From Planctomycetota bacterium (GTDB taxonomy: Bacteria; Planctomycetota; GCA-002687715; DRQF01): 64,000 bases of DNA. The DNA is taken from contig JBLINQ010000008.1 of NCBI GenBank assembly GCA_047639315.1, forward strand, positions 810 through 64,809, written 5' to 3'. Shown here in pieces: positions 1,848-51,500 of the stretch (position 1 is the first letter of the stretch; each line of letters starts with the position of its first letter). A program made the translations under genes and the position numbers. The notes beneath the pieces are model-generated. The model had not been told where the DNA came from. It worked only from the letters and a program-made list of their open reading frames with translations, and did no database searches.

Positions 1848-2861
1848 TTACTTCATCCGGCTCCAGACGTTGGCATACCACATGGCACGTTTAGAAACCT
1901 TGAGCCCTGTCATCTTGCCCACGACTTTCCTCATCTTCAGGTCCATGCCATCTTTCACGCCTTTTTGTGAAGCAATGATGAGCTTGGTGACGGCCTTGTC
2001 GAGCTTGAGTTCGTTCTTACCAACGTAGTCGTCGAACTTGGCTTTGAATGCAGCGCAAGTCGCTTCCCAAGTTGGTTCCCCTTTGCAGCCCTTGGTGAGG
2101 GCTTCGAGGTTCTTTTTAGCTTCGATCCAGCTGCCAGTCGCCATCATATATTTGATCGAAGCGACGTCAGCTTTAAAGCGAAGCTTCAGTTCTTTCTTGG
2201 CCAACTCTAGGTCGGCTTTGACTTCCTCGGTACTTGGCTGGTAAGTCTCGAGAATCTTCTTGGCGTCAAAGAGTAAACCCTTGCCATGCATGAGTGCTCG
2301 TGCCGATGCGATCTCGGGAGCGGCTCCCCATCCGGTCTGCAGTTTCTTGAGTTCGATAGGAATGCGCTTATCGATGAGCTTGCCGACTTCGTTGCGATGA
2401 CCGACGGCGATGATCTTGCCGTCGACTCCAACGAGGGCTGCCATCGGCAACTTCAATGCGTCAGACTTGCCAATCACGAGAGGATTGTCGGCCGTGACCA
2501 TGGCTGTATTCGTTGGAAAGCGCTTCATCATGAAGGCGGCCAAGTCGACGGTCTCTTCTTGCACGTGAGTCAGGACAACAGTGAGTCCTTTCTTACGATA
2601 CTTCTTGTCGATCTTAATGGCATGCGGCACCGCATGCCCGAGGCAAGGCCCTCAGCGGTAGCCCCACATCTCGATAAGAACGGGTCGTCCAACGAAGTGG
2701 TTACGTGATACGTGACCATCTCCATTCATCACGACTTTGCGAAACCGAAACTCTGGCATGCGCTCTCCGGCAACGGCCAAAGTTTGAGCATGGCTCATCG
2801 TTGGCAGCAGGACGAGGAGGGCGATGGCCAATGACAGTCGATTGATACTCATGAATCTCAT
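1848..2861 (-). CDS. Exported TlpA/redoxin-like protein with U-x-x-C motif (predicted selenoprotein, UGA read-through at 2654-2652)
   Basis: Track ORFs 2652..2861 and 1848..2630 are in the same frame. Reading through TGA gives signal peptide...GRPVLIEMWGYR-U-GPCLGHAVPHAIKIDKKYRKKGLTVVLTHVQ, the redoxin beta1-CxxC-helix-beta pattern. A SECIS-like hairpin follows. Start is 2861 or 2852. Confidence 0.85.
2619..2638 (-). promoter_or_regulatory. Candidate bacterial SECIS element
   Basis: Minus strand GGCATGCG-GTGC-CGCATGCC: perfect 8-bp stem, loop starts with GU, stem starts 13 nt and loop 21 nt after the UGA. Confidence 0.7.
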
Positions 2862-3117
2862 AACTCAGGTATAGCGGATCCATCAGGTCGTGTCATGGCT
2901 TTGTTGTCCAGAGTGTCGATGAATGGGCGGGATTGCCCCAGGTTGGGGCGAATTTCCTTGGTTCGAGGACGCAGAATCTAATTGGAGTGAACCGCTGAGC
3001 ACCCTCGCCGTTTTCTATTTTGTCAACCAACCCGGGGGCTGGCGAAAATCATCCCTTGTCGTTCGAGGCACTCGACTCGACGGACAGGCGTCTCACTTAC
3101 AACTGAAGGAGGTTCTC

Positions 3118-4647
3118 ATGTCAGCTGACAATTTGCGCTACCCGTCCGTACATCAAGATTTCAACGAGGTGCTTCTCGAGCAGCTGCAAAGAACACCCTG
3201 GATTCTGATTTCCGGGGCTTTTCATGCCGCGCTTGTGGTGCTGATGATGCTCTTCATGAGTCCGCAGATCGACCTTGAGCCAGATGAGATGGCTGAAATC
3301 GGAGCCGATTATGTTGACGAAACAGAAGAGGATGTTCCAGAGGTTGATCCACCAGAAGACGATCCTGTACCGACTGAAGTTCCAGTTGAAGATCTCCCTG
3401 AAGTCACTCAGGAAGTTGTGAACGAGACCCCTGATAACAGTGACATGGAAGAGACTTTCGGAGAATCAGAATTCGAGGCACCAGCCAGGTTGACCAGCAC
3501 CAGTAACAGTGATGCGATTGGTCTCGGTGGTGGCGTTGGCGGCGGCAGTGGAGCAGGCGGACGGAATGGCAGAATCAAGGGCGGTGGGCGCCCCAAAGCT
3601 GCCGACGTTTGCGTGATGCGTGGCCTTGAGTGGTTGTCTCGTCACCAGTCTCCCAATGGTTCTTGGGACGCCGATGGTTTCTGCTGCGCCACAGGAGGGT
3701 GCACCTGCTTACAAGGAAGTAAGGGTGGCGCCCTGTTTGATACTGGCGTGACCGGCCTCTCGCTCTTGGCTTTCTTGGGAGCAGGTGAGTCCCCGAAGGT
3801 CGGCGAGTATCGCCGGAACGTTGCACGAGCAGTGCGTTGGTTGATGAAGAGTCAGGATGCCGAAGGCTGCTATGGCGAGAGCAGCGGCAGTAAGATGGCA
3901 TACAACCAAGCCATCGCCACCTTGGCTATGATCGAGGCGTATGACATGAGTCGTATCCCGTCACTCAAAGCGTCAGCTGAAAAGGGCTTGGCCTTCTGCA
4001 TGTCGATGCAGAATCCTTACAAGGCATGGCGCTATGGCGTGGCAACAGGACAGAACGATGTCAGTGTCACCGGTTGGATGGTCATGGTCATGAAGGCGGC
4101 GAAAAGTGCAAAGTTGCCATTCGACGAGCGGAGAATGGCATGGGCGACAGACTACATCGTTGAAATGACTGATGAAGAATCCGGACGGGTTGGCTATGTG
4201 AGGGCTGGCGAACCGACTGTACGCGAAGCGGGCAAGACCGAGGAGTTTCCAGCTGAAGAGTCTGAGTCGATGACCGCTGTTGGGATCTGTAGTCGCATCT
4301 TCATGGGCGAAGACCCTAGCAACAGTAAAGAGATCAAACTCGCGACCGAGAACCTGCTGCTGAAGAAGATGCCCGTTTGGGATCAATCCCGAGGTTCCAT
4401 TGATATGTACTACTGGTACTACGGCACTCTGGCCATGTATCAGGTGGGTGGTCAAGCTTGGAAAAAGTGGAATGTTGCGCTCAAAGACGCCGTGATCGAT
4501 CGCCAGCGGGTCGATGGGGTCGCTTCGGGGTCGTGGGATCCACGGGGTGCATGGGGCGAGGCTGGTGGCCGAGTGTACTCAACCGCACTCATGACCATGT
4601 GCTTGGAGGTGTATTACCGTTATGGGCGCGTCTTCGGCACCAAGTAG
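3118..4647 (+). CDS. Membrane-anchored prenyltransferase/squalene-oxidase-repeat (alpha/alpha toroid) protein
   Basis: ATG 3118 has an AAGGAGG RBS, so it is preferred over the track start at 2923. One TM helix, acidic linker, Gly-rich stretch, then QW-like repeats (WLSRHQSPNGSW, WLMKSQDAEG, QRVDG..SGSWDP; YYWYYGTLAMYQ). Confidence 0.8.
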   Translation: MSADNLRYPSVHQDFNEVLLEQLQRTPWILISGAFHAALVVLMMLFMSPQIDLEPDEMAEIGADYVDETEEDVPEVDPPEDDPVPTEVPVEDLPEVTQEVVNETPDNSDMEETFGESEFEAPARLTSTSNSDAIGLGGGVGGGSGAGGRNGRIKGGGRPKAADVCVMRGLEWLSRHQSPNGSWDADGFCCATGGCTCLQGSKGGALFDTGVTGLSLLAFLGAGESPKVGEYRRNVARAVRWLMKSQDAEGCYGESSGSKMAYNQAIATLAMIEAYDMSRIPSLKASAEKGLAFCMSMQNPYKAWRYGVATGQNDVSVTGWMVMVMKAAKSAKLPFDERRMAWATDYIVEMTDEESGRVGYVRAGEPTVREAGKTEEFPAEESESMTAVGICSRIFMGEDPSNSKEIKLATENLLLKKMPVWDQSRGSIDMYYWYYGTLAMYQVGGQAWKKWNVALKDAVIDRQRVDGVASGSWDPRGAWGEAGGRVYSTALMTMCLEVYYRYGRVFGTK

Positions 4648-4742
4648 ACGATCTTGAAGTGTGTGTCTTCGTTGAGTCCTAAGAGAAACGGACTGCCAGG
4701 ATTTCTGGCAGCCCGTTCTTGTTTTCTTGTTGTCGTTGGCTC

Positions 4743-6002
4743 TTACGACATGCTGCCGCGCAACTCTGCGGCCCACTGAAGCGCTGATACGTAGGTGTCT
4801 CGGATGGCACCCGAATCCATCCCTTGAAAGCCCACTTCATGCCAAGCGGACTGTTCATAGTTGATGGTGCATTTGAGCGCTTCGCCCATGATCCCCTCGT
4901 GAGTCATCAAGGCATCTTTGAGATTTTGAGCGATTGGCAACTCTTCCAAAATCTCATCCATCGGGCGATCAAAGAGACACTCGAGAGTCGAGAACAACCC
5001 AATCGTGAAGAACGAATCTGGGTTCTTCTCTTCCGTTTCGCGAGACAAGAGCTCGCACATACGACCACGGATGACTGCGGTATTGAAGATGGCGGATGGC
5101 TTATCTGAAACCCCTGAGAGAATGACCAAGTTGGCCCAAGTGCGTATCCACTTCATGCCCAGCAACATGATGGCATGCTGGATCGATTCAACTTTGTTGC
5201 TGAATGCGAACATCGCGGAATTGACGTAGTGCAGCAGTTTGTAGCTCAATCCGACATCATTGCAGATGGCGTCTTGCATTTTCTCTAACCCAGATTGGGT
5301 GTCGTTGATTGCCGCCAAGAGTCGCATGCGCGCGATGCCATCAGCAGGCACTCGCCCACCCACGACGATTTGGGGCTTCGAAAGAAAATGGCCTTGGAAG
5401 AGATTAAAGCCGGCACGCCGGCAGTCCTCGAAGCAGTCGAAAGTCTCAATGCGCTTAGCGATTGTTACGATGCCAAGTTCATTAGCCTTCGTGACGATCA
5501 ACTTGCAGGCTTCTGTCGGCCCGGCGGCAACGTCTAACTTAATCTCATCAATCTTGGACAACATTTCGTCGTCGATATTACCTGGCTCATGCCCATCGAG
5601 AACGATGCGGTAACCGCTGTTCCGTAAAGATTGAATGAACTCCACGACTTGGGAGTCAGTGAGATCGGCCGCACTCAGTTCCAGTGCCAGTTTCTCCTTT
5701 GGGAAGATCTGAATGCAATTTGACCGCAAGAATGTTGGCGTCACGTTGACATAGGCGCGTTGTGTTTCAGCGACGTTATCTTGGCCGAGCTCGATGAACG
5801 TATTCCAGAACGTTTGGCCCGTGGCTAAGTCGCTGTCAGTGATCTCAGCCCAATTGTCGCAGCTATTGCGATAGAGCAACTCGTAGGCACGAGTCTCAAG
5901 GTTCTCATTGAACATCGGTTGTCTTCCGACGTAAGTCGGGACGAGGGCAGACTCTTCAACCTCTTTGACTCCACCTCGATTTGATTCCATTTGTTCGCTC
6001 AT
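4743..6002 (-). CDS. EAL + HDOD domain protein (YuxH-like), EAL probably degenerate
   Basis: RQPMF...YELLYR, FQGHFLSKP (EAL-like) followed by HDOD (DVGLSYKLLHYVNSAMF...IQHAIMLLG; FTIGLFSTL). Confidence 0.85.
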   Translation of the reverse strand: MSEQMESNRGGVKEVEESALVPTYVGRQPMFNENLETRAYELLYRNSCDNWAEITDSDLATGQTFWNTFIELGQDNVAETQRAYVNVTPTFLRSNCIQIFPKEKLALELSAADLTDSQVVEFIQSLRNSGYRIVLDGHEPGNIDDEMLSKIDEIKLDVAAGPTEACKLIVTKANELGIVTIAKRIETFDCFEDCRRAGFNLFQGHFLSKPQIVVGGRVPADGIARMRLLAAINDTQSGLEKMQDAICNDVGLSYKLLHYVNSAMFAFSNKVESIQHAIMLLGMKWIRTWANLVILSGVSDKPSAIFNTAVIRGRMCELLSRETEEKNPDSFFTIGLFSTLECLFDRPMDEILEELPIAQNLKDALMTHEGIMGEALKCTINYEQSAWHEVGFQGMDSGAIRDTYVSALQWAAELRGSMS

Positions 6003-6366
6003 GCCGGACTCCTCTCACAACGCGGGATATTCCCCTTATCGGTTAAGGCGGAGCACATCTGGAATACTGCATTTTCACCCAGGTAAGACGAATAAATGGC
6101 CGAGCGAAATATGGGAAAGGGTGGCTTGCACGCCACTTACTAAGGAGCAAGATCGGTGGCAGCGATGAATTGTGAATCGATGTGCCTAATTCCCCAACAG
6201 ACAGTGAAAGGCCTCACTTTTTTCTCGGGTGATTAACCGAAAAGTGACTAAGATCTCAGGAGAGTACCGAGACGTTTGTCTCTTCTTCCGGATATACAAT
6301 ACCGAAGGTACGTGCTTGCGAACTCGCCGCTTGTCGACATCTTGAAACCTCTCTGATTGGAATGCT

Positions 6367-7311
6367 GTGATGCGAAGCAAGCAACGCGTTCGACGCCCTG
6401 AGAAAACCGGGAATTCCCGATTCGAGTGGGTCACGATTCCCAGGTCGATTCTCGGTTGCCGACGATCTTTTGGCGTCTACCTTCCAGTCGACTACGGCAC
6501 TTCGACCCGAGGCTATCCGACCCTCTATCTGTTTCGCGGGGCTGAAAGAGAATGGGCTGGCTCTCAGGATGGTCGTGAAGGGCTCAAACGGATTCTCGAT
6601 GGTTTGATCGAGTCTGGGAAAATTGAGCCGATGATCGTCGTTCTGCCTGGATTCATGGAGCCTTCGGGCCGGACCCAAGGCGTCCCACTGGATTGGTTGG
6701 CAGATGGATCGAATCGAGGTGTTGGCAACGGGCGATTTGAGCGCCATTTCTTTGAGATCAAAGACATTGTCGAATCGCGTTTTGCAGTTCGCATCGGGCG
6801 TCGGCATGCGGCACTCGACGGCTTCAGCATGGGTGGATTCAGCTCGATGTATCTTGGCTTGAAGTACCCAGCGCTCTTTGGATCGGTTGGCTCCTACGAC
6901 GGAAGCTTCATGTGGCCTAGTCAGATCGACCCGCGTCTTAAACCGTTTGGGCGTGCCTGCAAGCTCTGGATGTCAGAAACTTGTGCCCCTTATTTTTGCG
7001 GGCCGACTGGTTGGGATATTCCTCGGATGGAACGTGCCAATCCCATCACCTGGGTGACAAACGCGACGGGCAACCGCCTACGACTCTTGCGCGACCTCAA
7101 GGTTCATATGCGCACGGCGGGTTCTGAAGTGGTTGGTAACGTCGATCGGTGCTACGAGCTCGACGAGTACCTCGAATATGCTGGGATTGCCAATACCTTC
7201 CGTGACCAGCTTATCTTTGACAAGAAAGCTCGGCACGACTGGAGTTGGGCAGATCGTCATCTAAACGAGACGATCCTGCTCCATGATCAGGTTTTTAGAT
7301 CGATTGGTTGA
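6367..7311 (+). CDS. Alpha/beta hydrolase, putative esterase (Fes/FrmB-like)
   Basis: VYLP.DY...YPTLYL, nucleophile elbow GFSMGG, C-terminal HDW; no signal peptide. Confidence 0.8.
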   Translation: MMRSKQRVRRPEKTGNSRFEWVTIPRSILGCRRSFGVYLPVDYGTSTRGYPTLYLFRGAEREWAGSQDGREGLKRILDGLIESGKIEPMIVVLPGFMEPSGRTQGVPLDWLADGSNRGVGNGRFERHFFEIKDIVESRFAVRIGRRHAALDGFSMGGFSSMYLGLKYPALFGSVGSYDGSFMWPSQIDPRLKPFGRACKLWMSETCAPYFCGPTGWDIPRMERANPITWVTNATGNRLRLLRDLKVHMRTAGSEVVGNVDRCYELDEYLEYAGIANTFRDQLIFDKKARHDWSWADRHLNETILLHDQVFRSIG

Positions 7312-8026
7312 GTCGTTCGAGGATTTCGCCGGCCTCGATGAACGATCGGGCCAACATATCAGGCTGGTCGATCTTACTCATCACAACATCGCTGGCCGTA
7401 TAACCGCAGGTTAGGCCAATGCAGCGGATCTTTCCGGCTTTTGCCACGTCGAAGTCCGGTTTGCCGTCACCCACAAGAACTGTCTCATTTCGATCCGAAC
7501 CAGCCTGATCGATGACGAAGTCAAGAACAGCAACATCCGGCTTACGAGGCAGAATCTTGTTGTCGTCGTCCCGGGCTCCATCTCCGACCACGAGATCGAA
7601 GTAGGGGAGCAATTTCAAGCGCTCGAGGACTTGCACGGCAATGTCATGAGGCTTGTTCGTCAGGCAGATCTGGAACACACCTTGGTTTTGCCAGTGGCTC
7701 AAGATCGTTTCAGCCCCCGTAGCCACAGTTGTCTGGGCAACTGGGTTGTCTTCGTAGATATCCTGAAACTCGGTGACGAGAGAGTGAACTTCGGCAATCG
7801 AGCGTGGCAGGGTGTTGAACGTGGCTTGGGAGGAATCGTCGACCATGCCGAAAATAGCCCGTTCGACGAGCTTCTCGGCACCATCACCGATGAAGTCACG
7901 AACTTGGGCCTCGGTCAGCTCATCCAGGGTGTAGTGACCCCGGATGCTATTGACGGCAAGGGCTATATCAGGGGCGGAGTCGACCAATGTACCGTCCAGG
8001 TCATATATGATGCAAGAAAGTGGCAT
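7295..8026 (-). CDS. gph: HAD-superfamily hydrolase, phosphoglycolate phosphatase-like
   Basis: DLDGTLVDS motif I, TNKP motif II, KPD motif III, VGDG..D motif IV. ATG 8026 with a GGAG RBS is preferred over 8095. Confidence 0.8.
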   Translation of the reverse strand: MPLSCIIYDLDGTLVDSAPDIALAVNSIRGHYTLDELTEAQVRDFIGDGAEKLVERAIFGMVDDSSQATFNTLPRSIAEVHSLVTEFQDIYEDNPVAQTTVATGAETILSHWQNQGVFQICLTNKPHDIAVQVLERLKLLPYFDLVVGDGARDDDNKILPRKPDVAVLDFVIDQAGSDRNETVLVGDGKPDFDVAKAGKIRCIGLTCGYTASDVVMSKIDQPDMLARSFIEAGEILERLNQSI

Positions 8027-8128
8027 TCCTAACTCCGTTCCGTTTTGGCCCAATTTGCCAGAGATTCCCCTGCATTGTGTGGGCTTTTTCGCCATTCACA
8101 ACGAGAAAGGCAAAACAGAAACATAGAA

Positions 8129-8161
8129 GAGCCTCAGAGGGGTAAAACCCCGCTGAGGCTC
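8129..8161 (-). terminator. Intrinsic terminator downstream of add
   Basis: GAGCCTCAG-A-GGGGT-AAA-ACCCC-G-CTGAGGCTC hairpin with a T-rich tail on the minus strand. Confidence 0.65.
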
Positions 8162-8193
8162 GATCTGATCCAGTTCACAGCATATGGGCGATC

Positions 8194-9285
8194 TTAGATG
8201 AGGCCTTCATCGCGCATCGACTGATATCCTGCTTTGATTTTATCGTAGATGAGAGTGAGGCGATGATCGAAGTCGACGAAGGCACTTTTCATCGAATTGA
8301 CGGTTACCTTCTCCAGATCTCTGGCATTGAGCCCAAAAGTCTCATTCGCGATGGCAAATTCCGCTGACATTGTTGTGTCTGACATCAGTCCATTGTCGGT
8401 ATTGAGCGTGACACGGAAATGGGCATCGAAATAGGGTCTGAATGGGTGAGATTCGATATTGGGGACGGCGCCTGTATGGACGTTGCTTTGAAGGCAGATC
8501 TCCAGGGGAATTCGATGATCTCGAATATAGGTCGCCAAGGTTCCCATGTGAGTGACCTTGCCGTCCAGAATGGTCATGTCTTCAACCAGTCGGGTACAAT
8601 GACCGATCCTGTGGGCGCCGCAATATTGAAGAGCCTGCCAAATGCTCGCTTTGCCAAAGGCCTCACCAGCATGAATCGTGATATTGAAGTTCTCGCGTTT
8701 GCAGTATTGGAAGGCCTCCAAATGTGCTTTCGGTGGGTGTCCGTTCTCGTCACCAGCCAGATCGAAGCCGACGGCCCCTTTGTTTCGGAAGGCCACTGCC
8801 AACTCGGCCATTTCCAAGGATAAGGCCGGCTCCATGTTCCTCAGAGCGCAGACGATAATGCCCCAATGAACTCCGGTCTTCTCTTGTCCGGCCTCCAGGC
8901 CGCGAATCACGGCGTTCATAACCTGCTCGTAGTTCAGCCCCTTATTCGTGTGGAGGAGGGGAGCAAATCGAACTTCGGTGTAGACGACACCGTCGGCGTG
9001 AAGATCTTCAAGCAGCTCTGTTGCGACTCGGGCGAGTGATTCCTCGTCTTGCATGACCCCGCAGGTCACTCCAAATCCTTCGAGATACTCACCAAGATTG
9101 CCCTTATTTGCGCCGCGGAAGAACCACTTGGAGAGTTCATCTGGGTTGCTCGTTGCCAGTTCGACATCGCCTAACCCCTCGGCCAATTCGATGATCGTTG
9201 CGGGCCGCAAGCCGCCGTCGAGATGATTGTGAAGCAGAACTTTGGGCATTCTGGCCAATACGGCGGGTGCAATAATCTCGGTCAT
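8194..9285 (-). CDS. add: Adenosine deaminase
   Basis: LHNHLDG, HAGE, RIGHC, NTDN metal/catalytic motifs. ATG 9285 overlaps the thiolase TGA (ATGA). Confidence 0.9.
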   Translation of the reverse strand: MTEIIAPAVLARMPKVLLHNHLDGGLRPATIIELAEGLGDVELATSNPDELSKWFFRGANKGNLGEYLEGFGVTCGVMQDEESLARVATELLEDLHADGVVYTEVRFAPLLHTNKGLNYEQVMNAVIRGLEAGQEKTGVHWGIIVCALRNMEPALSLEMAELAVAFRNKGAVGFDLAGDENGHPPKAHLEAFQYCKRENFNITIHAGEAFGKASIWQALQYCGAHRIGHCTRLVEDMTILDGKVTHMGTLATYIRDHRIPLEICLQSNVHTGAVPNIESHPFRPYFDAHFRVTLNTDNGLMSDTTMSAEFAIANETFGLNARDLEKVTVNSMKSAFVDFDHRLTLIYDKIKAGYQSMRDEGLI

Positions 9286-10571
9286 TTGTCTTCCATTCTT
9301 TCCAATAAGACGGCTGAGCCTTGTCCGCCGCCGACGCATAGAGCAGCGATTCCGCGCTTTGCTCCGCGTCTTTTCATTTCTTTGAGGAGCGTCAAGATGA
9401 TCCGTGCACCACTGGCTCCAACGGGATGGCCAAGCGCTATCGCTCCGCCATTAACGTTGAGTTGTTCGAGAGGGATCTCGCCCATGGCCGAAGAACGACC
9501 CAATTCACGTTGGCAGAAGTCCTTCGACTTGGACGCTGAGAGACAGGCTAACACTTGAGCCGCGAAGGCCTCATTGATCTCAAATAATTCGATATCGCCC
9601 AGTTGCAGTTGATTGCGTTCGAGCAGCTTCGAAATGGCAAATACGGGCCCAAGTCCCATCCTCTGAGGGGATAAGCCAACGGTCACGCAGTCGCGAACAT
9701 AGCCAAGGGCCTCGTGCTTTTCGGTCATGAGTTTTGGGCTGGCGGCCAACAGAGCTACGGCCCCATCGGTCACGGCGCAGGAGTTGCCAGCTGTCACTGT
9801 GCCGTAACTTCTGGTGAAAACTGGGCGCAATCGGGCTAAAGCGTCTCGATTTTGGTTGGGGCGGACAGCTGTATCATCACGCACCGATGCGTTATTGGTC
9901 ACGGTCACGAATGATTCTTTGCGCAGCACTTCGGCGCTGGCGGCGGCCCTTTGATGGCTCCTGAGGCTATAGGCATCCTGCGCTCCTCGGCTAATGCTAA
10001 ACTCGCGGGCCAAGTTTTCAGCGGTCTTGCCCATGCTAAGCCCACAAATCGGATCGGTAAGCCCTTCGAGCAGGGCGATTCGCGGTTTCAAGAAACGTGG
10101 TCTGAATGTGAGCAAAGCACTGAGTTTTCCCGTCATGGATTTCGAGCGACCCAAAGTGCTGAACAGCGCCTTCATCTCGTCGGAATAGCAGAACGGGTAG
10201 TTGCTCATCGACTCGGTGCCGCCGATGAGGAAAGCCGAGTCATCGTTGCGATCAGCGCGGTGAAAGACCTGGGATAAGGCCTCCATCCCAGAGGCGCAAT
10301 TTCTTTGCACGGTCAATGCCGGGACCTTCTCAGAAATACCCGCACGCAAGGCGATGACCCGCGCAATGTTGCTGACGGCAGCATCAGGGCCAACGCACCC
10401 GAATATGACCTCTTCGATCTTCGCCGCAATGTCTGGATGTCGTGCCAACAAGTGGGAAGCGGCGAGGTACCCAAGTTCGTCGGCGCCTAAGCTCGCCAAT
10501 TCCTTATTAGCCGAAGCGAATGGCGTTCTGATGCCATCAACAATGACGAGTTCTTGACGTGAGTGGACCAT
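9282..10571 (-). CDS. fadI: Acetyl-CoA C-acyltransferase (3-ketoacyl-CoA thiolase, FadI/FadA-like)
   Basis: GIRTPF, VQRNCASG (catalytic Cys), EINEAFA, GGAIALGHPVGASG, CVGGGQG. ATG 10571 overlaps the upstream TAA. Confidence 0.88.
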   Translation of the reverse strand: MVHSRQELVIVDGIRTPFASANKELASLGADELGYLAASHLLARHPDIAAKIEEVIFGCVGPDAAVSNIARVIALRAGISEKVPALTVQRNCASGMEALSQVFHRADRNDDSAFLIGGTESMSNYPFCYSDEMKALFSTLGRSKSMTGKLSALLTFRPRFLKPRIALLEGLTDPICGLSMGKTAENLAREFSISRGAQDAYSLRSHQRAAASAEVLRKESFVTVTNNASVRDDTAVRPNQNRDALARLRPVFTRSYGTVTAGNSCAVTDGAVALLAASPKLMTEKHEALGYVRDCVTVGLSPQRMGLGPVFAISKLLERNQLQLGDIELFEINEAFAAQVLACLSASKSKDFCQRELGRSSAMGEIPLEQLNVNGGAIALGHPVGASGARIILTLLKEMKRRGAKRGIAALCVGGGQGSAVLLERMEDK

Positions 10572-12643: not shown

Positions 12644-12766
12644 CTCACCTTTCTGAATTCAAAACTGTGCCTTGCCTTCAGGCAACGGTCGATCGGCAAG
12701 ATACAAAAACTGACGAGTCTTCGTCGTGGCTGGACCAAAAAATGTAAGGAAAGTAGGTGTGACACG

Positions 12767-25168: not shown

Positions 25169-25458
25169 GATTTATTTCCTTGGGAATCGTTTTGCTGCGA
25201 ATCGTTCTCTTGAAACGACCTAAGAGCGCAGTCAAACGGACTTTCCGTGCTTTTCTTCCCACTGATGCTTCGACAAAGATACTTTCCTAAGTTTAACTTT
25301 TATGAGGTGATCTTTGGCAATCGGGGTGAATTCCGACTGGTCGAGTGGATTCGCACTCGGATGGACGATAAATCTGTATTGAGATTGCAGTGCTGGGGGC
25401 ATCGCCTGTACTCTCGACCCATCACCCCCTGATGATGACTACTCGGAGGAATCGAAGA

Positions 25459-26298
25459 ATGAAGAATTTGGCATTGATTGTCTGCCTCGTTGCCCTTGGC
25501 AGCATGGCAGTCCCAACGACATTATTCAGCCAATGCTGAGGTGCTGGGGGTAAAGCAAAAACCCCTAGCGGCGCTGGACGCGTCGAAACTCCCATTGCAA
25601 AAGAAATGCGTAGCCCTGCTGTGGCAACCGAGCTTGAGATCAATTGGATCGAAGCTCAGTGGCCAACTTCCTGGGATGAGAAGTATGGCGATCAAGCCCT
25701 TCCTCTCAGCGCACTTTCGAAGTTGTCAGACGACAAGAACAAACCTTCTCTCGTCTATGTTGTCCGTGGCAACGAAGAAGAGAAGCAGCTCATCAACGAA
25801 GACAAGATGTTTGGCTCCATTGATGTTGTTCTCGCCAGTCGTTTCTTCCGTTGCTATCGCATTGTTGACAGCGATATCACAGACGAGAAGATTCGCGCGA
25901 AGTATCTGTTGAAGAAGGGCCCCACGGTCATTCTTCTCGATGCCAAGGGCAACGAAATGTTGAAGAACAAGAAGAGCGTTTCGAAGACTTGGGTCTACAG
26001 CAAGCTGAAAAAGCAGTTCTCATATGACTTCGACGGCAAGATGTCGACTCACGTGAAGAAACTCTCCGCTTGGCTCGACGAGCTCGAAAAAGCTGACGAC
26101 AAGAAGGCTGACGCAGAACGTCTTTATCGTACTGCTGCAGACCGTTTCGAAAAACGCGAGACACCTGCTTCGACTCGTTCATTGGCAAAGGCTGAGAAAG
26201 CTTATGCTGACTCGGAAACCACATTTGACAAGATCAAAGAGCGCGGCCCAAAGTTGAGTAGCCCTCAATTGAAGACTCAGAATACTGCAAAGAAGTAG
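25459..26298 (+). CDS. Exported thioredoxin-fold-like protein with N-terminal Cys-Sec (CU) motif (predicted selenoprotein, UGA at 25537-25539)
   Basis: GGAGGA RBS and ATG 25459 give MKNLALIVCLVALGSMAVPTTLFSQC-TGA-GAGGKAKTPSGAGRVETPIAKE, exactly in frame (49 codons) with track ORF 25606..26298, whose own ATG has no RBS or signal peptide. Confidence 0.75.
25543..25577 (+). promoter_or_regulatory. Hairpin(s) immediately 3' of the in-frame UGA (candidate SECIS)
   Basis: GCTGGGGGT-AAAGCAAAA-ACCCCTAGC (9 bp, one G-U) starts 3 nt after the UGA. An alternative CTAGC-GGC-GCTGG hairpin puts a G-led loop 30 nt after the UGA. Confidence 0.45.
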
Positions 26299-37937: not shown

Positions 37938-37954
37938 TATTCCATCTTGACGTG

Positions 37955-40697: not shown

Positions 40698-40726
40698 TGC
40701 TTCCATAGGGCCCCCTGTGTAGGATT
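40698..40726 (+). promoter_or_regulatory. Sigma70-type promoter for the sulfatase-like/murL/murD2 operon
   Basis: TTGCTT-17 nt-TAGGAT with TG extension, 36 nt upstream of ATG 40763. Confidence 0.55.
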
Positions 40727-40762
40727 AGCTCCGAGTCGTAACTTATTTGGCATTGGTGATTT

Positions 40763-44698: not shown

Positions 44699-44738
44699 AG
44701 GCTCCTGGCCGTCTCAGACACAGGTTAGACTGGGCCTC

Positions 44739-46121
44739 ATGAATCGCCCCGAACCGGATGTTTCAATTTCCTCATTTGACCCCAGTCATTTCTCGACCTT
44801 TGTCTTTGACAGGGTGAGCGATTTTGGGCAAGGCTTGAGATTCCATTACCGAATCTCAGGGGAAGGCCATGACGGTCTCGAGTTCACCGAAGAAATTCAC
44901 TTCGAGGGGCATCGGGATTCACTCTGCGAAGAGCAGGAAGCTGTGCTTGAGAACTTATCCAGCCTCCTCTTTCAAGTTGCCGGCACGAGCTACTACAAGA
45001 CGGCAGCACCTCCGACCTTAACTCTGCCTTCGGGCACAGCTGGCCCAGATCGAATTGCGTTTCTCACGACGCTAGTCAAAAAAGGTCTGGCCGAATTTGC
45101 CAACGTCAACAATCTTGATCTGAGCGCAATTCGATTCTTGCCATGTCCAGGGCGTCCCAGCGAATCGCAATACGTCGTACCCGAGTCGAATAAGGTGCTT
45201 GTGCCTTTTGGTGGCGGCAAAGACTCGCTCCTATCGCTCCAGCTGGTCGTTGAAGCGGGCTTTAATCCCACTCTTTTTGTTGTTGGGCCGAACCCCGTGG
45301 CCGAAGGTTTAGCCGAGAAAACTGGGCATCCCCTGATTCGAGTGCGAAGAGTATTAGATCCTAAGATAGGCATGCTCAACACCGTCGGTGCATACAATGG
45401 GCATATCCCAGTGACCGCAGTCGTTTCCATGATCGCCGTTCTGGTGGCCGTGCGCGACGGGTTCTCGGCGGTTGTCATGTCCAACGAGAACTCTGCAAAT
45501 AAAGGGACGATGTTGGACGGTGGTGCAAAGGAAGTGAATCACCAGTTCTCCAAGGGCCTCGAATTCGAGGCCATGCTTCGCGATCAAATTCATCGATGTG
45601 GATTGAGGGGAATGGACTACTTCTCGTTACTTCGGCCTTTCTCTGAGTTGTCGATTTGCCGTGAGTTCGCTCGTCGTGGCAATCACTTTGGCGAGTTCGT
45701 GAGTTGCAACGGAAATTTTCGAAGGTCACAAACTGACGCCCGACCGCATTGGTGTATGGAGTGCTCCAAGTGCTTATTCGTTCATTTGTCCATGGCGCCA
45801 TTTCTCACTGAAGACGATATGTTCTTGATCTTCGGAGCGAATCCTCTTGGCGATGTTGCCCGCTTCTCAACTTACGAAGCGCTGATTGAGTTTAATGGCG
45901 CTCAGAGACCCTTCGACTGTGTCGGTGGCCCAGAAGAATCGCGTGCTGCGTTCGCTCTTCTGCTTGATCATCCCGTCGCCAAGTCTTATCTCGCGGTCAA
46001 GGCATTCAAAGAGAAATGGGGCCCCAGCCTACCGACGGTCGACGTGGTGTCCGAATTGGCATCGTCGGAAGATCACTTGGTACCCGAACGATTCCTCGGA
46101 GCCGTGCATGCCGTTCGCTAA
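44739..46121 (+). CDS. murL: UDP-MurNAc-L-Ala-L-Glu epimerase (MurL-like)
   Basis: PFGGGKDS, VMSNE, VNHQFSKG, SLLRPFSEL, SCNGNF, WCMECSKCLF, PFDCVG match the MurL motif order; overlaps a MurD2-like gene. Confidence 0.82.
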   Translation: MNRPEPDVSISSFDPSHFSTFVFDRVSDFGQGLRFHYRISGEGHDGLEFTEEIHFEGHRDSLCEEQEAVLENLSSLLFQVAGTSYYKTAAPPTLTLPSGTAGPDRIAFLTTLVKKGLAEFANVNNLDLSAIRFLPCPGRPSESQYVVPESNKVLVPFGGGKDSLLSLQLVVEAGFNPTLFVVGPNPVAEGLAEKTGHPLIRVRRVLDPKIGMLNTVGAYNGHIPVTAVVSMIAVLVAVRDGFSAVVMSNENSANKGTMLDGGAKEVNHQFSKGLEFEAMLRDQIHRCGLRGMDYFSLLRPFSELSICREFARRGNHFGEFVSCNGNFRRSQTDARPHWCMECSKCLFVHLSMAPFLTEDDMFLIFGANPLGDVARFSTYEALIEFNGAQRPFDCVGGPEESRAAFALLLDHPVAKSYLAVKAFKEKWGPSLPTVDVVSELASSEDHLVPERFLGAVHAVR

Positions 46122-47463
46122 GTTAGCAGCTGCACGCGTAGCGATTCTCGGATTCGGCCGAGAAGGTCGGGCGGCCCTCGCCGTCCTGAGGCAACGCTGT
46201 CCACGACTGTTGATCACCGTCATTGAAGAAGGCAAGCTGGCGCCTCAATTGGACGATGACGACGACTTACTTCACATCGTTAACCGCCAACTCTCCGTCG
46301 AAGAATTGCTTGGTTTTGATTATCTGATCAAAGCACCTGGAATCAGCTGCTATCGTCCAGATCTTGTTGCTGCACGGGCGGGCGGCCTGCAAGTTACTTC
46401 CCTCACTTCTTTGTGGCTCTCTGAGCCACATACGGCCATCACAATTGGTGTGACCGGAACCAAGGGTAAAAGTACAACGGCGACATTACTGCGCGACCTA
46501 TTGGTGTCGACTGGAGCTCACGCGGTTCTCCGGGGCAACGTCGGGCGGCCACTCTTTGATCCCCAAGAACCTGAATCCCACGCCAATTTCGTTGTGATCG
46601 AATTGTCCAGCTATCAGGTTGCAGACTTAGAGGGCTCGCTTGACCATGCGGTGCTTACGAACCTCGAACCAGAACATCTTGATTGGCATGGCAGCGAAGA
46701 ACGTTACTTCGAAGACAAACTCAAGATCACGAATTTGACTCAGTCGGTTTACGCCAATGCCGACTGCCGGCGGTTGCGGGAACGCCTAAAAGACAAGAAG
46801 CATGTTCGTTGGTTCGGTGCGGGTCACCAGTTGAGGCCGACGGCTCAAGGTGTCATGTGTGGTGATAAACTCCTGATATCCGATGCCAAGATGAAAACCG
46901 TTGGCTATCACAACCTGGTTAACGCGTGCGCGTCTTTGGCGGTTGCCTTCGATCTGGGTGTATCGCCGGAACTCGCCAAATCCGTGGCCGAGAATTTTCA
47001 ACCTTTGGCTCATCGCTTGGAAAGCTTGGGAGAGATTGAAGGCCGATTGATCGTCAATGACAGTATGGCTTCGACTCCCTTAGCCACGATGGCTGCCATG
47101 CGTGCCTTCGATGGTCGCCCGCTGCATGTCATCGTCGGTGGCGCCGATCGCGGGCTTGATCTTGCTGAATTCATAGAGTTCTTGGTCAATGTCGATGGGC
47201 CGTGCGCGATTCACCTCGTCGGTGATTTTGGTCTCCGGTTGCAAAGAAGCCTCTCGGCGACAGATGGATCTCATTCGGTTCGCGTGCAATCTGCGGCGAG
47301 CCAGGAAGCTGCGGTCGATGCATGCTGGGCGGAATCGAGGCCAGGAGATGTCATCTTGCTGTCGCCTGGAGCGCCGAGTTTTGATTGTTTCCGTGATTTC
47401 GCGGCCCGCGGTGCTGCCTTCGGCAAGTCAATCTCAAGACATGCTCCCAATGCAGCTTCATAG
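46108..47463 (+). CDS. murD: UDP-MurNAc-L-Ala:glutamate ligase, MurD2 (L-Glu) type
   Basis: ILGFGREG, KAPGIS.Y, TGTKGKSTT (K variant typical of MurD2), ELSSYQ, EHLDWHG, HRLE, VNDS, LLSPGAPSF. ATG 46108 with GGAG is preferred over the track start at 45886. Confidence 0.88.
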   Translation: MPFAKLAAARVAILGFGREGRAALAVLRQRCPRLLITVIEEGKLAPQLDDDDDLLHIVNRQLSVEELLGFDYLIKAPGISCYRPDLVAARAGGLQVTSLTSLWLSEPHTAITIGVTGTKGKSTTATLLRDLLVSTGAHAVLRGNVGRPLFDPQEPESHANFVVIELSSYQVADLEGSLDHAVLTNLEPEHLDWHGSEERYFEDKLKITNLTQSVYANADCRRLRERLKDKKHVRWFGAGHQLRPTAQGVMCGDKLLISDAKMKTVGYHNLVNACASLAVAFDLGVSPELAKSVAENFQPLAHRLESLGEIEGRLIVNDSMASTPLATMAAMRAFDGRPLHVIVGGADRGLDLAEFIEFLVNVDGPCAIHLVGDFGLRLQRSLSATDGSHSVRVQSAASQEAAVDACWAESRPGDVILLSPGAPSFDCFRDFAARGAAFGKSISRHAPNAAS

Positions 47464-47574
47464 GTTCAGTGAATAGGGAATATCGTCCCTTGACCAACCC
47501 TTAGCAATCGGAATAGCGTGTCTGTCTTACTACGTCCGTTCTGAAGATCGAACGGAATGACCCGGAGGAACAAA

Positions 47575-48441
47575 ATGCTCGTCTCTCGATTGAAGAACTT
47601 CGCCCTTATCTTGGCTCTGCTTTCGGTCTCGCAGATTGTGATCGCGCAAGACTCGCGGCCGAATAAGGCCAAGAAGACAGCGGCGATGAAGGTGACCAAG
47701 AAAGAGATCAGTTTCAAATCTCTTGATGGCCTCCAACTTACTGCTGATCTTTATGCTGGCAATCTTCTCAATGAGAACTCGCCATTTATCTTGCTTTGCC
47801 ATCAAGCGGGCTGGAGCCGCGGGGAATATGTTGCGATTGCGCCGAAGTTGGTGGCGATGGGCTTCAACTGCTTAGCGCTTGATCAACGTTCAGGTGGGGG
47901 CATCAACGATGTTGCCAACAAGTCAGTTGCTGCAGCCAAGAAGAAGGGGTTGCCGACTCTTTATCTCGATGCCAGACAAGACATCATTGCGGCTCTGCAG
48001 TTCGTCAAGAAGAAGCATGCGAAGGGCAAACTCATCGTATGGGGCTCTTCTTACTCGTCGGCTTTGGTGCTCGAGATTGTTGGCAACAAACCGGACCTTG
48101 CCGATGGAGTCTTATCGTTTGCACCCGGCGAGTATTTTAGCCGTTTCGGCAAGACCGATCATTTTGTCCGTGATGGCGCCAAGAAACTAAAAGTGCCAGT
48201 CTTCTTAACTGGATCAAAAAGCGAGACTGCAGGGAGCGTGAAGATGATTGCCGACTCGATGAAGTTGGGGAAGAAACTGCACTTCTTCAAGCCCAAGTCA
48301 CGTGGCAATCATGGTTCAAGAGCACTGTGGAAGAAATTCGGTGACAGCCAGGACTACTGGAATGCCGTAACCAAGTTTTTGGACACGCATTTCCCGCGGC
48401 AGTCTGCCACCAGTAAACCATCCAAGAAAATGAAGAAATAG
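47575..48441 (+). CDS. Secreted alpha/beta hydrolase (dienelactone-hydrolase-like)
   Basis: Signal peptide, LLCHQAG.SRGEY, DQRSGG, WGSSYSS nucleophile elbow, HGSRAL. Confidence 0.8.
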   Translation: MLVSRLKNFALILALLSVSQIVIAQDSRPNKAKKTAAMKVTKKEISFKSLDGLQLTADLYAGNLLNENSPFILLCHQAGWSRGEYVAIAPKLVAMGFNCLALDQRSGGGINDVANKSVAAAKKKGLPTLYLDARQDIIAALQFVKKKHAKGKLIVWGSSYSSALVLEIVGNKPDLADGVLSFAPGEYFSRFGKTDHFVRDGAKKLKVPVFLTGSKSETAGSVKMIADSMKLGKKLHFFKPKSRGNHGSRALWKKFGDSQDYWNAVTKFLDTHFPRQSATSKPSKKMKK

Positions 48442-48453
48442 GAAAAAGACAGC

Positions 48454-50511
48454 ATGATCAAGATTCTGAAAACAGCGCTGGTATTGTGCCTCTTGGCAAC
48501 CTTGGGCATGGCCCAAGAGCGTATGTCGCCTGAACTTCTCTGGAAGCTCAAGCGTGTCAGCGGCGGCATCTACTCACCCGACGGCAAGTGGGTTGTTCAC
48601 GGTGTTCGTGGTTACGATATCAAAGAGAACAAGGGTGATACGGATCTCTTCTTGACCGAAGTGGCGACTGGAAAGTCTCGCCAAGTCACCGAAGGCCCTG
48701 GCAGCGAAGGCGCTGTCCAGTGGGCTCAAACGGTTGATGGCGCCCGCCTGTTCTTCTTAGCGCGCCGAGGTGATGGAGCTACGACGCAGGCTTGGCACAT
48801 GGACCCAGTGAGTGGTGCGACAGCGGCGGTGACCAATGAAAAGACTGGCATCGCTAATCTCAAAGTTTCGCCAACAGCCAAACATATAGCTTTTACCATG
48901 GACGTCAAACTCGACAACAAAGTCGTGGACATCTATCCGGACCTGCCCAAAGCCGATGCGCGCATCATCGATGGTCTGATGTATCGTCATTGGGACGCGT
49001 GGCATGACTATAAGTACAGTCATCTGCATGTGGCGGAGATCGGAGTTGATCTCAAGGCGAAGAACACCGTCGACTTAATGGAAAATATGAAGGTCGATTG
49101 CCCAGTGCCGCCCTTTGCCGGCAGTGAGCAACTCAACTGGTCACCGGATGGCACCGAGATCGCCTTCACTATGAAGGTCAGCAATGACTGGGCTCAGTCA
49201 ACTGATAGCGACATCTACCTGATCAAGGTGGGCGATGCTGACCAGCGCAAGCGCTGCATTACCGCCGGGATGGACGGCTACGACAATGACCCCATCTATT
49301 CTCCAGATGGCAAGTACTTGGCGTTTCATTCCATGAAACGTCCCGGTTTCGAGTCGGATCGCAATCGCCTGATGATTTATGATCGCAAGTCTGGCGTCAT
49401 TTCAGACTTGTCTGCTGGTTTGGACCAGATGGTTCATGGTTCGGTTTGGGCTCCAGATTCCAGTCGTCTCTACTTCATGTCAGAGATGCGCGGAACAAAT
49501 CAGCTCTACACCTTAGACCTCGCTTCGAAATCATTGAAGCGCATCACGCTGACGAGTCAGAAGAACTGGGGCATTCGTGATATCGCGCCGGATGGCAAGA
49601 CGCTGCTGGTTGGCGTCCAAAGCATGGTGCGTTCGACAGAGCTCGGCTATCTCACAATTGCCGACGGCAGCTACCAGCCACTCACGGATGTGAATGGCGA
49701 GATTTTCTCCAAACTCGAAAAACCTAAGATTGAAGAGCGTTGGGTCAAGGCCACTGACGGCAAGATGATCCACAGTTGGGTGATCTATCCGCCTAACTTT
49801 GACCCCAAGAAAAAATGGCCAACACTGATCTACTTCCAAGGCGGTCCCCAAGGCCAAATTGGGCAGTGGTTCAGCTTCAGGTGGAACTTCCATTTGATGG
49901 CTGCTCAAGGTTACGTTGTCGTTGCCCCAAACCGCCGGGGATTGCCAGGTTTTGGCCGTGCATGGAACGACGAGATTTCCAAGGACTGGGGTGGGCAAGC
50001 GATGCAAGACATCCTCGCTGTGACCGATGATGTGGCAACTGAGCCTTTTGTTGACAGCAAGAAAATGGCCGGTATTGGTGCGAGCTTCGGTGGCTACACC
50101 GCTTATTGGATGATGGGCAACGGGGCAGATCGTTTCGCCGCCATGATCTCTCATGCGGGTCTATTCAACTTGGAATCGATGTATGGCGTGACCGAAGAGT
50201 TGTTCTTTGTGAACTGGGATGTTGGTGGTCCTTACTGGCGCAGTAAGAAGTTGCAAGACTCTTACAACCGTTTCTCGCCTCATCGCTTTGTCGGCAACTG
50301 GAAGACTCCCTTACTCGTGATTCATGGCGAGAAAGACTTCCGCGTACCGATCGGTGAAGGCATGCAAGCATTCACTGCGGCCCAATTGCAAGGTGTGCCG
50401 AGCCGCTTCCTTTACTTCCCTGAAGAAGGGCATTGGGTGCAGAATCCACAGAACGGGGTTCTCTGGCATCGTGTCTTCTTCGACTGGCTTGCTCGTTACT
50501 GCAAGAACTAA
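48454..50511 (+). CDS. S9-family peptidase (dipeptidyl-peptidase 5 / acylaminoacyl peptidase-like), secreted
   Basis: Signal peptide, TolB-like propeller, FQGGPQ, GASFGG, DFRV, EGHWV. Confidence 0.92.
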   Translation: MIKILKTALVLCLLATLGMAQERMSPELLWKLKRVSGGIYSPDGKWVVHGVRGYDIKENKGDTDLFLTEVATGKSRQVTEGPGSEGAVQWAQTVDGARLFFLARRGDGATTQAWHMDPVSGATAAVTNEKTGIANLKVSPTAKHIAFTMDVKLDNKVVDIYPDLPKADARIIDGLMYRHWDAWHDYKYSHLHVAEIGVDLKAKNTVDLMENMKVDCPVPPFAGSEQLNWSPDGTEIAFTMKVSNDWAQSTDSDIYLIKVGDADQRKRCITAGMDGYDNDPIYSPDGKYLAFHSMKRPGFESDRNRLMIYDRKSGVISDLSAGLDQMVHGSVWAPDSSRLYFMSEMRGTNQLYTLDLASKSLKRITLTSQKNWGIRDIAPDGKTLLVGVQSMVRSTELGYLTIADGSYQPLTDVNGEIFSKLEKPKIEERWVKATDGKMIHSWVIYPPNFDPKKKWPTLIYFQGGPQGQIGQWFSFRWNFHLMAAQGYVVVAPNRRGLPGFGRAWNDEISKDWGGQAMQDILAVTDDVATEPFVDSKKMAGIGASFGGYTAYWMMGNGADRFAAMISHAGLFNLESMYGVTEELFFVNWDVGGPYWRSKKLQDSYNRFSPHRFVGNWKTPLLVIHGEKDFRVPIGEGMQAFTAAQLQGVPSRFLYFPEEGHWVQNPQNGVLWHRVFFDWLARYCKN

Positions 50512-50536
50512 GAACGGACGGTTCTCGTAGACAAAA

Positions 50537-50572
50537 AAACTGCCTGGACAACGATGGTTGTCCAGGCAGTTT
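50537..50572. terminator. Bidirectional intrinsic terminator
   Basis: AAACTGCCTGGACAAC-GATG-GTTGTCCAGGCAGTTT perfect 16-bp stem between convergent genes. Confidence 0.88.
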
Positions 50573-50597
50573 CTATAAACTCGACGAAATCTGAAGC

Positions 50598-51500
50598 TTA
50601 AGCGTCTTTCAAACCGATGAGGGTTTCGCGTGCTTCTTCAACAAGGCCAGTTTTCTTGGCTTTGCCCATGAAACGTCCAAGAGCCTTCTTGGCGTCCTTT
50701 GGTTCCATGTTCTTAATTTCATCCAACCGTGTGCGAGCCGAAGCCGTGATGGCGTCTTTCGCTGCGGTGATCTTTGCCTGAAGTGCTTCAGGCAAGTTCT
50801 GGGGCTTAGCAGCAACCTTGTCGATTAACTTGTAGCCTGAGTCCCAATCACCTTTGCTGGCAGAAGCGACGCTGGCGTCGATCGCGCTATTGATCTTGTT
50901 GATCGTCTTGCGCTTGATGCCCTTGCCATGCTCGTCTTTGAGGAGCTTGGTTGCATTCTTGACTTCTTCCATGATGCCCTTGGCATTCACACCTTTGAAG
51001 ATGTGCATACGTTCGAGGTTGTGTGGATTGACCAAGCAAGTGTAAGGGATCTTGCCGGTGTCGTTGTATGTCCCAGCCTTGCTTGAACGCAATTTAGAGA
51101 TCATGTCAAAAGTGAGGTTTGGCCACTTAGCCATGAACTTGACTTTTTCACCGTTAGCATTCTTCTTGGTGTACATGGCTGCTTTAGGATCTTCTTTCTT
51201 GATCCCTTCATCCAGACGACCCAAGGACAGAACCTCAACGGTATTGTCGTTCGCAAACTTGATATATTTCTTATTCTGCAACACGGCAGAATGTGCACCC
51301 CAGCACGGGCCTCAGTAGAAGCCATGGCTGTGCAAAACCATAGGGACGTTCAGTAGCTTGGCTTCTTCGACTGCCGCATCCCAAGTCTGAGCGAACGTCA
51401 CTGTTTCCTTCAACTTTGGCTTTTTCTGAGCCCAAGCATCATCGGAAATGGCAACGAATGTCAGGCTGAGAAGGAGTGCAATTAAGAGACTCCGTTTCAT
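50598..51500 (-). CDS. Exported thioredoxin-fold protein with U-x-x-C motif (predicted selenoprotein, UGA read-through at 51314-51312)
   Basis: Track ORFs 51312..51590 and 50598..51284 are in frame. From ATG 51500: signal peptide...TWDAAVEEAKLLNVPMVLHSHGFY-U-GPCWGAHSAVLQNKKYIKFA (thioredoxin-like 'A..EAK...P......W-CxxC' pattern). A SECIS-like hairpin follows. Confidence 0.85.
51273..51292 (-). promoter_or_regulatory. Candidate bacterial SECIS element
   Basis: Minus strand ATTCTGC-CGTGTT-GCAGAAT: perfect 7-bp stem, GU at loop positions 2-3, loop 26 nt after the UGA. Confidence 0.7.

Follow-up and report, generated by a model that had tools for sequence, protein, structure and literature searches.

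Predicted selenocysteine codons in three exported thioredoxin-fold genes of a planctomycete, and indications of a lineage-wide selenoprotein expansion

Introduction

Can an in-frame TGA stand for selenocysteine (Sec, U) in three genes that share one stretch of planctomycete DNA? The stretch, here called the window, is 64,000 nucleotides long and covers positions 810 to 64,809 of the forward strand of contig JBLINQ010000008.1 (assembly GCA_047639315.1, Planctomycetota bacterium). An earlier note on the window had pointed to three unlinked genes, in each of which a single in-frame TGA precedes a Gly codon and a hairpin, and had proposed that they belong to a large, mis-annotated set of exported selenoproteins. 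All three genes were located together with their Gly codons (GGG, GGT and GGC) and hairpins. Gene A, predicted to encode an exported TlpA/Redoxin-like selenoprotein of 337 codons in read-through translation, occupies 1848..2861 on the minus strand (ATG at 2861, TAA at 1850-1848), and its TGA-GGG begins with the TGA at 2652..2654 in the context LIEMWGYR-U-GPCLGH. Gene B (288 codons, likewise a predicted exported selenoprotein) lies on the plus strand at 25432..26298, with an alternative start ATG at 25459 and a TAG at 26296-26298; its TGA, followed by GGT, is at 25537..25539 in TLFSQ-C-U-GAGGKAK. Gene C, the third predicted exported selenoprotein (300 codons), is on the minus strand at 50598..51500 (ATG at 51500, TAA at 50600-50598) and has its TGA, followed by GGC, at 51312..51314 in HSHGFY-U-GPCWGAH. 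All three genes thus start with ATG and end with TAA or TAG.

Our reading is that the three TGAs are very probably Sec codons, decoded by the ordinary bacterial route in exported thioredoxin-fold proteins. The recoding mechanism is a known one and gene A fits the known UxxC class; family C and especially family B are uncatalogued. Most notable is that Sec predominates in the exported thioredoxin-fold proteins across the lineage.

Conservation of the TGA site across the order

The orthologue search was run in six frames, with stops read through, on 23 genomes of the order. Nearly all orthologues of A, B and C carried exactly one TGA, at the same site. The expectation that this TGA would align with TGA or Cys in relatives was borne out: it fell in the same column across the order, and Cys appeared as WCGPC in family A, as a distant C-G-Q-C in family C and as Cys tails in family B. 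For family C, U was present in 31 of the 31 orthologous loci recovered, at 40-72% protein identity; 16 of these loci come from public metagenome-assembled genomes (MAGs), some of them duplicating the same genomes. The motif H-x-H-G-F-Y-U-G-P-C-W-G-x-H of this family varies little, the block H-x-H-G-[FY]-x-U-[GP]-[PGS]-C-W-G-x-H being otherwise nearly invariant. In family A, close orthologues had U at the aligned column within W-G-[FYN]-[RH]-U-G-P-C and distant paralogues had FFAYW-U-GPC; the Cys forms read FWGTW-C-GPC and FWATW-C-GPC, with WCGPC in the paralogues L026 and L032. In family B, one or two TGAs connect the signal-peptide part to the thioredoxin part, and the two parts share a frame even though the linker varies in length. 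Since the TGA is conserved at the same site and its flanks stay in frame, sequencing error, pseudogenes and independent half-genes can be excluded.

These alignments also bear on the reading in which the TGAs are true stops, each locus being two open reading frames (ORFs), a pseudogene or an assembly error, with the downstream part made alone or not at all. Gene callers do annotate only the downstream part of B, and one copy of gene C with an in-frame TAA indicates that decay does occur. However, more than 20 genomes, each assembled independently, have the TGA at the same codon, and the protein sequence on both sides of it is conserved and never out of frame. The downstream parts alone would have no signal peptides, and those of A and C would also be missing half of the active-site strand. 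In family C, moreover, H-x-H-G-F-Y and G-P-C-W-G are invariant on either side of the TGA. We therefore consider true stops very improbable and retain Sec as the meaning of the codon.

Sec machinery and genetic code of the host genome

The host genome is a 5.2-Mb MAG of 280 contigs, 89.6% complete with 2.1% contamination. A check for the Sec machinery, which the earlier note had proposed, found all of its parts, namely tRNA-Sec, selA, selB and selD. The single tRNA with a UCA anticodon in the genome scored 65.5 bits as tRNA-Sec, against an Rfam cutoff of 47. Profile matches placed selB on contig C175 (354 bits) and both selA (507 bits) and selD (355 bits) on contig C111, where selA, selD and tRNA-Sec lie head to tail at 6305-8928 on the minus strand. 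The selD gene has its own in-frame TGA in SSGG-U-AAKL; as SelD would itself be a selenoprotein, selenophosphate synthesis would depend on Sec decoding. Across the order, tRNA-Sec was found in 22 of the 23 genomes, the exception being an 84%-complete MAG.

The presence of this machinery has to be weighed against a rival in which the same hairpin-dependent recoding takes place and the residue inserted is Cys, either always or when selenium is scarce, by way of a mischarged tRNA-Sec or a Sec-like tRNA-Cys; the products would then effectively be CxxC proteins. UGA-to-Cys recoding by SelB-like factors and Sec-like tRNAs has been proposed in some bacteria, and the Cys homologues show that the positions tolerate Cys. 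Nevertheless, the genome has intact selA and selD genes, the latter a selenoprotein gene in its own right, the sole UCA-anticodon tRNA scores as tRNA-Sec, and it is implausible that a costly signal would be kept phylum-wide just for Cys when TGC or TGT would do. We regard Cys insertion as improbable.

A variant code is a simpler possibility. TGA would then mean Trp or Gly throughout the lineage, as codes of this kind exist in other bacteria (NCBI tables 4 and 25). However, TGA is the terminator of 774 of the 2329 long ORFs genome-wide (33%), and a codon that ends a third of the long ORFs has not been reassigned. Within the window, TGA acts as a normal stop at 609, 9282, 18560 and 35943, in agreement with the earlier note, and conserved Trp positions are encoded by TGG. 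The in-frame TGAs, in addition, are single in each gene and sit on redox-Cys positions. We give the variant code next to no credence, and Sec insertion remains the preferred reading.

Hairpins downstream of the UGA

A hairpin lies 6-45 nt past each UGA in A, B, C and their orthologues, with a sequence, loop size and spacing that vary by family. The putative selenocysteine insertion sequence (SECIS) hairpin of gene A, at 2619..2638 on the minus strand, starts 16 nt past the UGA and has an 8-bp stem (GGCAUGCG/CGCAUGCC) with the loop GUGC; a counterpart is found at the same place in the orthologue L016 and in others. In gene B, two hairpins follow the UGA on the plus strand, a first with a 9-bp stem at 25543..25569 and a second, GGCGC-UGGAC-GCGUC, at 25570..25584, which starts 33 nt past the UGA and overlaps the codons of the conserved GAGRV peptide. 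The second recurs in the form GGCGC-NGGN(C)-GCGUC in 9 orthologues among those listed, and in distant members of family B the hairpins 10-45 nt past the UGA are different ones, rich in GC and with a small loop that contains G. The putative SECIS hairpin of gene C (51273..51292, minus strand) starts 22 nt past the UGA and combines a 7-bp stem, AUUCUGC/GCAGAAU, with the loop CGUGUU.

Compared with shuffled sequences one at a time, the hairpins gave z values of -1.7 for A, -2.2 for B and -0.4 for C, so that only B stands out. Because these scores are modest, the hairpins are convincing only when comparative data are added. In family C, the 5' arm of the stem is made up of codons +7 to +10, which encode His-Ser-Ala-Val. 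Among 25 unique sequences, 22-25 have CAT, TCT, GCC and GTG here, and the synonymous entropy of these codons is zero, compared with 1.1-1.8 bits for the other fourfold-degenerate codons in the alignment. The His at +7 is CAT, and the invariant His codons at -6 and -4 favour CAC. Three sequences of the family, with H-G-S-V or H-R-G-V in place of the usual residues, can fold there into a substitute hairpin, GCACG-GGUC-CGUGC. The stem-loop 3' of the UGA is under selection as RNA, the synonymous invariance that indicates this being that of family C only.

Predicted exported UxxC proteins A and C

The N-termini of A, B and C each open with basic residues, continue with a hydrophobic run of 10-16 residues and close with an AxA-like site, as called by a heuristic. 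The mature proteins contain 13-15% Lys and have isoelectric points of 9.3-9.8. The signal peptides ascribed to them earlier were thus recovered as signal-peptide-like N-termini, and the Lys-rich bodies as such.

Gene A has an active site of the W-C-x-x-C type in the form LIEMWGYR-U-GPC, after a signal-peptide-like N-terminus, and its C-terminal half is helical and Lys-rich. Examined as a member of the TlpA/ResA-like Redoxin family (PF08534, cd02966), it scored 23.7 bits against Pfam Redoxin (cutoff 26.6, E 4.5e-5), just under threshold, and a paralogue on contig C33 scored 41.5 bits, above the cutoff. Its matches in NCBIfam (release 20) were weak ones to ResA (42 bits, cutoff 170) and TrxC, and none was to a selenoprotein-specific model. 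One orthologue of gene A, L023, lacks both Sec and Cys in its active site, which reads TWDRARFGRG, and keeps the remainder of the protein; this suggests that the body of gene A may have a redox-independent role.

The structural model of gene C (predicted local distance difference test score, pLDDT, 90.5) consists of a thioredoxin fold and a C-terminal helical bundle. The closest folds were 3f9u, an exported domain related to cytochrome c biogenesis, DsbH (2ju5) and DsbD-gamma. Against Thioredoxin_7, for which PF13899 and PF03190 were tested, the best E value was 2.5e-4, under the gathering score, and 17 of 18 family members were likewise sub-threshold. Gene C therefore resembles Thioredoxin_7/DsbH by fold and is not a demonstrable member by sequence. 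Neither B nor C matched any model of NCBIfam release 20, the selenoprotein-specific NF04xxxx models included, at E values up to 1. A homology between B and C was also considered and rejected: profile-profile comparison found a short thioredoxin-fold segment only, with a probability of 6%, which makes B and C separate families.

Three invariant His residues (H57, H59 and H70, within protein residues 57-70) flank the U-G-P-C of family C. They hint at metal binding, or at a tuning of Sec reactivity beyond plain disulfide exchange. In the closest relative, the copy of gene C (L055/L071) has, besides the conserved TGA, an in-frame TAA where others have Lys (YTK-*-NAAGEK); the copy has either become a pseudogene recently or been misassembled in that MAG.

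Of the three proteins, A and C have the UxxC layout that the earlier note had invoked, with the Sec inside the fold. B does not, as its C-U dyad lies outside the fold.

Gene B and the predicted Sec dyad on its N-terminal tail

The predicted product of gene B is laid out as a signal peptide, a Q-C-U dyad, a Gly-rich basic tail, a thioredoxin fold and a long helical hairpin, with the Sec two residues past the predicted signal-peptidase site (after LFS in LFS-Q-C-U). Its model (pLDDT 82.6) has a disordered tail at residues 18-44, followed by the thioredoxin fold and the long helical hairpin. Thioredoxins and the C-terminal domain of DsbD were the closest structures in PDB. The thioredoxin domain contains no CxxC, the canonical site reading RGNE. 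By Pfam scan and structure comparison no flavoprotein domain was found in gene B, the body being a thioredoxin fold, and no Pfam family was found for the protein.

Family B was present in 97 of 401 genomes phylum-wide. In its alignment an invariant Gln marks the end of the signal peptide, and the dyads after it differ from genome to genome: Q-C-U, Q-U, Q-UU, Q-UC, QG-U and Q-C-A-H-U in genomes of the order, and AQ-UU, AG-U-GGGG-C, AG-UC and GG-CU in other genomes of the phylum. In a complete 6.6-Mb genome, the tail is Q-UU and the thioredoxin domain still has a CxxC, namely C-E-L-C. Tails with Cys only were also found (ARG-C-GGGG-C, to be compared with the Sec form AG-U-GGGG-C, as well as AQ-C-GGG-CC and AQ-C-K-C). 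Two adjacent in-frame TGAs (Q-UU) follow the signal peptide at L041, L049, L050, L051 and L052 within the order, at L099 and L108 elsewhere in the phylum, and at L098:177-1106 on the minus strand; in these relatives both UGAs would depend on a single hairpin region downstream. Cys141 is nearly invariant in the family, and the sole orthologue without it has C-x-x-U within the tail.

What might a dyad in this place do? The most likely role, in our view, is that of a mobile redox arm, and the main alternative is a hook for metals or metalloids, in which the N-terminal amine and a vicinal selenolate/thiolate would bind copper, mercury, nickel or the like; a site of lipid attachment belongs to the same group of readings. 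Vicinal Cys/Sec pairs bind soft metals well, the dyad stands at the very start of the mature chain beside the invariant Gln, and a TonB-dependent receptor gene lies divergently upstream of B. On the other hand, one relative has the UU tail plus a CxxC in the thioredoxin domain, and tail Sec co-occurs with Cys141, or appears as CxxU where Cys141 has been lost. These patterns fit thiol/selenol exchange better than metal binding. Lipid attachment is opposed by the Gln at -1, which is unfit for a lipobox, and by several orthologues without any Cys. Taken together, the hook group seems unlikely, and we continue with the redox arm.

The lipoprotein reading of gene B was also rejected as a candidate by direct inspection: there is no lipobox of the form [LVI][ASTVI][GAS]-C, the invariant Gln occupies -1, and the Q-U, QG-U and Q-UU orthologues have no Cys. 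Ahead of the Gln, small residues occupy -1 (A, G or S) and -3 (A, L, V or T), so cleavage by signal peptidase I before the Gln fits and a lipobox does not.

In public protein collections, gene B appears only as a part of about 230 residues past the TGA, unnamed and without Pfam domains. A profile search with family B gave 685 cluster representatives (E <=0.001), and most of the 150 listed among them start just past the TGA position.

Neighbouring genes

The genes next to A, B and C encode GNAT, TonB-dependent receptor, Fpg, S9 peptidase, cyclophilin and Ser/Thr kinase proteins. As these neighbours are unrelated to each other, A, B and C are unlinked and probably monocistronic.

Extent of the predicted selenoproteome

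The genome was screened with motif and overlap filters, and by phmmer searches of thioredoxin seeds against all TGA read-through windows. Two further approaches were dropped: a codon-usage log-odds filter for read-through candidates was too permissive (1510 hits), and a within-genome Sec/Cys BLAST, in which 70-residue windows were compared with stop-delimited ORFs, gave mostly repeats and off-frame matches and contributed nothing. The screen yielded about 21 UxxC thioredoxin-like TGA genes in the host genome, most with a signal-peptide-like N-terminus. Across the TGA, 6 of 10 scanned UxxC genes matched Redoxin, AhpC-TSA, Thioredoxin_2/_7/_8, DsbD_N or PDZ, two of them below the Pfam cutoff. 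Two Sec-peroxiredoxins, SelD and B add to the count, as do, by motif only, FdhA, MGMT-like, ArsC-like and AhpD-like TGA genes. The host genome would thus hold about 30-35 candidate selenoprotein genes, a rough count by motif and family. Motif matches on contigs C1, C14, C37, C44, C55 and C71 were left uncounted, as they look like chance junctions or adjacent in-frame genes.

For the order as a whole, 282 Redoxin-family matches were obtained, and one in-frame TGA was counted by hand in 89 of the 150 listed, that is, in at least 89. Together with the roughly 30-35 candidates of the host genome, and with the presence in public sets of only the downstream part of B, this agrees with the large mis-annotated exported selenoproteome that the earlier note had proposed.

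Several genes of the host genome outside the window were also observed. On contig C38 (2238-3318, plus strand), an exported gene with two thioredoxin-like domains has two TGAs about 138 codons apart, in FWGTT-U-TPC and LGAPW-U-GYC. Contigs C90 (about 4479-6400, minus strand) and C152 (about 1386-3000, minus strand) hold large paralogues with signal-peptide-like N-termini and a TGA in U-x-C followed by His (DWL-U-MCLDSHAHG and GYI-U-ICMDNMGHG); a DsbD_N-like Cys pair was seen by eye elsewhere in both. Two peroxiredoxin-like genes, at C38:22174-22560 and C55:25930-26343 (both plus strand), have the TGA at the peroxidatic position (GTPG-U-R and FTPT-U-S). In the one on C38, the N-terminus is hydrophobic and resembles a signal peptide, and the C-terminus is extended by a long stretch that by eye is dienelactone-hydrolase-like.

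Discussion

The route by which the three TGAs would be read is the ordinary one. SelA and SelD would make Sec-tRNA, and SelB would deliver it to a coding-region hairpin just 3' of the UGA. In A and C, Sec would take the place of the N-terminal nucleophilic Cys of CxxC and, judging from the chemistry of the family, would pair with the second Cys as a selenenylsulfide in the course of thiol-disulfide exchange. A is probably a TlpA/ResA-like thiol:disulfide oxidoreductase and C a divergent Thioredoxin_7/DsbH-like oxidoreductase. In B, the CxxC appears to have been lost, and the Sec dyad on the disordered Gly-rich tail may act as the mobile redox arm, forming a vicinal selenenylsulfide or diselenide, or working with Cys141 as partner or, in relatives, with the retained CxxC. 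The three genes, with products unrelated to one another, would be part of a lineage-wide expansion of exported Sec thioredoxin-fold proteins, cut at the TGA by annotation pipelines.

A number of observations weigh against this picture. The MAG is incomplete and slightly contaminated, as noted above, and its Sec machinery lies on contigs other than that of the window. The signal peptides of A, B and C were called by a heuristic and not by a trained predictor. The hairpin of gene C folds no better than its shuffles (z = -0.4), and RNAalifold preferred a different, weak consensus for family C, with one compensatory pair; with covariation this scant, the SECIS call rests on synonymous constraint. 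The first hairpin of gene B has no G early in its loop, and the 33-nt offset of the second is at the far end of the usual range. The Cys paralogue of family C, with C-G-Q-C at the Sec site, is distant (24% identity, E 6e-4). For family B, some homologues have neither Cys nor Sec in the tail, the tail of gene B is modelled with a pLDDT below 50, and its redox-arm role is one that we only infer.

There is also a wider proposal, which we hold tentatively as a real possibility. Family B may be a class of exported selenoproteins in which the reactive selenium sits outside the folded domain, in a Cys-Sec, Sec-Cys or Sec-Sec dyad at mature residues 2-3 that could serve as a swinging redox arm or a metal hook. 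In several lineages, UGA-UGA would be read from one hairpin region to give a vicinal diselenide. The envelope redox chemistry of oxidase-bearing Planctomycetota might be predominantly selenium-based, with tens of Sec genes per genome.

Bacterial Sec use has been described mainly for anaerobes and for cytoplasmic enzymes. The host genome has at least three genes for heme-copper oxidase subunit I, and a planctomycete lineage with such oxidases appears to use Sec in much of its machinery for exported thiol-disulfide chemistry. Public annotation would accordingly lack or truncate tens of genes in each genome, which would distort what is estimated of the proteome, the metabolism and the selenium demand of marine and sediment Planctomycetota. 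Family B would widen the known ways of deploying Sec in proteins, and its relatives with adjacent UGAs would offer a natural test of spacing dependence in SelB/SECIS decoding.

With regard to published selenoproteomes, the largest in bacteria comprise 57 and 63 genes (PMC13188914). The same 2026 review states that aerobic bacteria rarely retain selenoproteins, and Planctomycetes go unmentioned in it (PMC13188914). Complete Sec machinery and a handful of selenoproteins have been described in two algal-associated planctomycetes (PMC4807772). A number of Sec genes per genome, and a dominance over Cys forms, like those of this order were not described in the literature searched.

Among known systems, the closest to gene A are the catalogued UxxC selenoproteins of marine metagenomes, which include a TlpA-like oxidoreductase, Redoxin-family proteins and Trx7/PDZ (PMC13188914). 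As in A, the first residue of CxxC is Sec instead of Cys, the hairpin lies in the coding region and the genes are truncated in annotation. Trx7/PDZ has the same domain pair as a host gene on contig C18 (Thioredoxin_7 plus PDZ), a likeness of domain pair only. Gene C, in contrast, has its own HxHGFYUGPCWGxH signature and a helical-bundle partner, and stays under all Pfam and NCBIfam thresholds.

For B and C, the closest structures are those of DsbH, DsbD-gamma and Thioredoxin_7 (2ju5, 1uc7 and 3f9u), which are exported thioredoxin folds and, as B and C would, probably carry out thiol-disulfide exchange in the periplasm. However, their known members use Cys, B has no CxxC, and both B and C add a Lys-rich helical C-terminal domain. 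The Q-C-U-G of B also recalls the Gly-Cys-Sec-Gly tail of animal thioredoxin reductase, in that a vicinal dyad on a flexible terminal extension may carry redox equivalents from a buried centre to substrates and back. Unlike that tail, which belongs to a flavoprotein, the one of B is N-terminal and exported and extends a thioredoxin fold; the two are not homologous, and the comparison is an analogy only. Recoding of the E. coli fdhF type, finally, shares with the present genes the use of selA, selB, selC and selD and a hairpin directly 3' of the UGA within the ORF. It differs in that here the sequence, loop and spacing (6-45 nt) of the hairpin vary, and in that the adjacent UGAs of the B relatives share one region.

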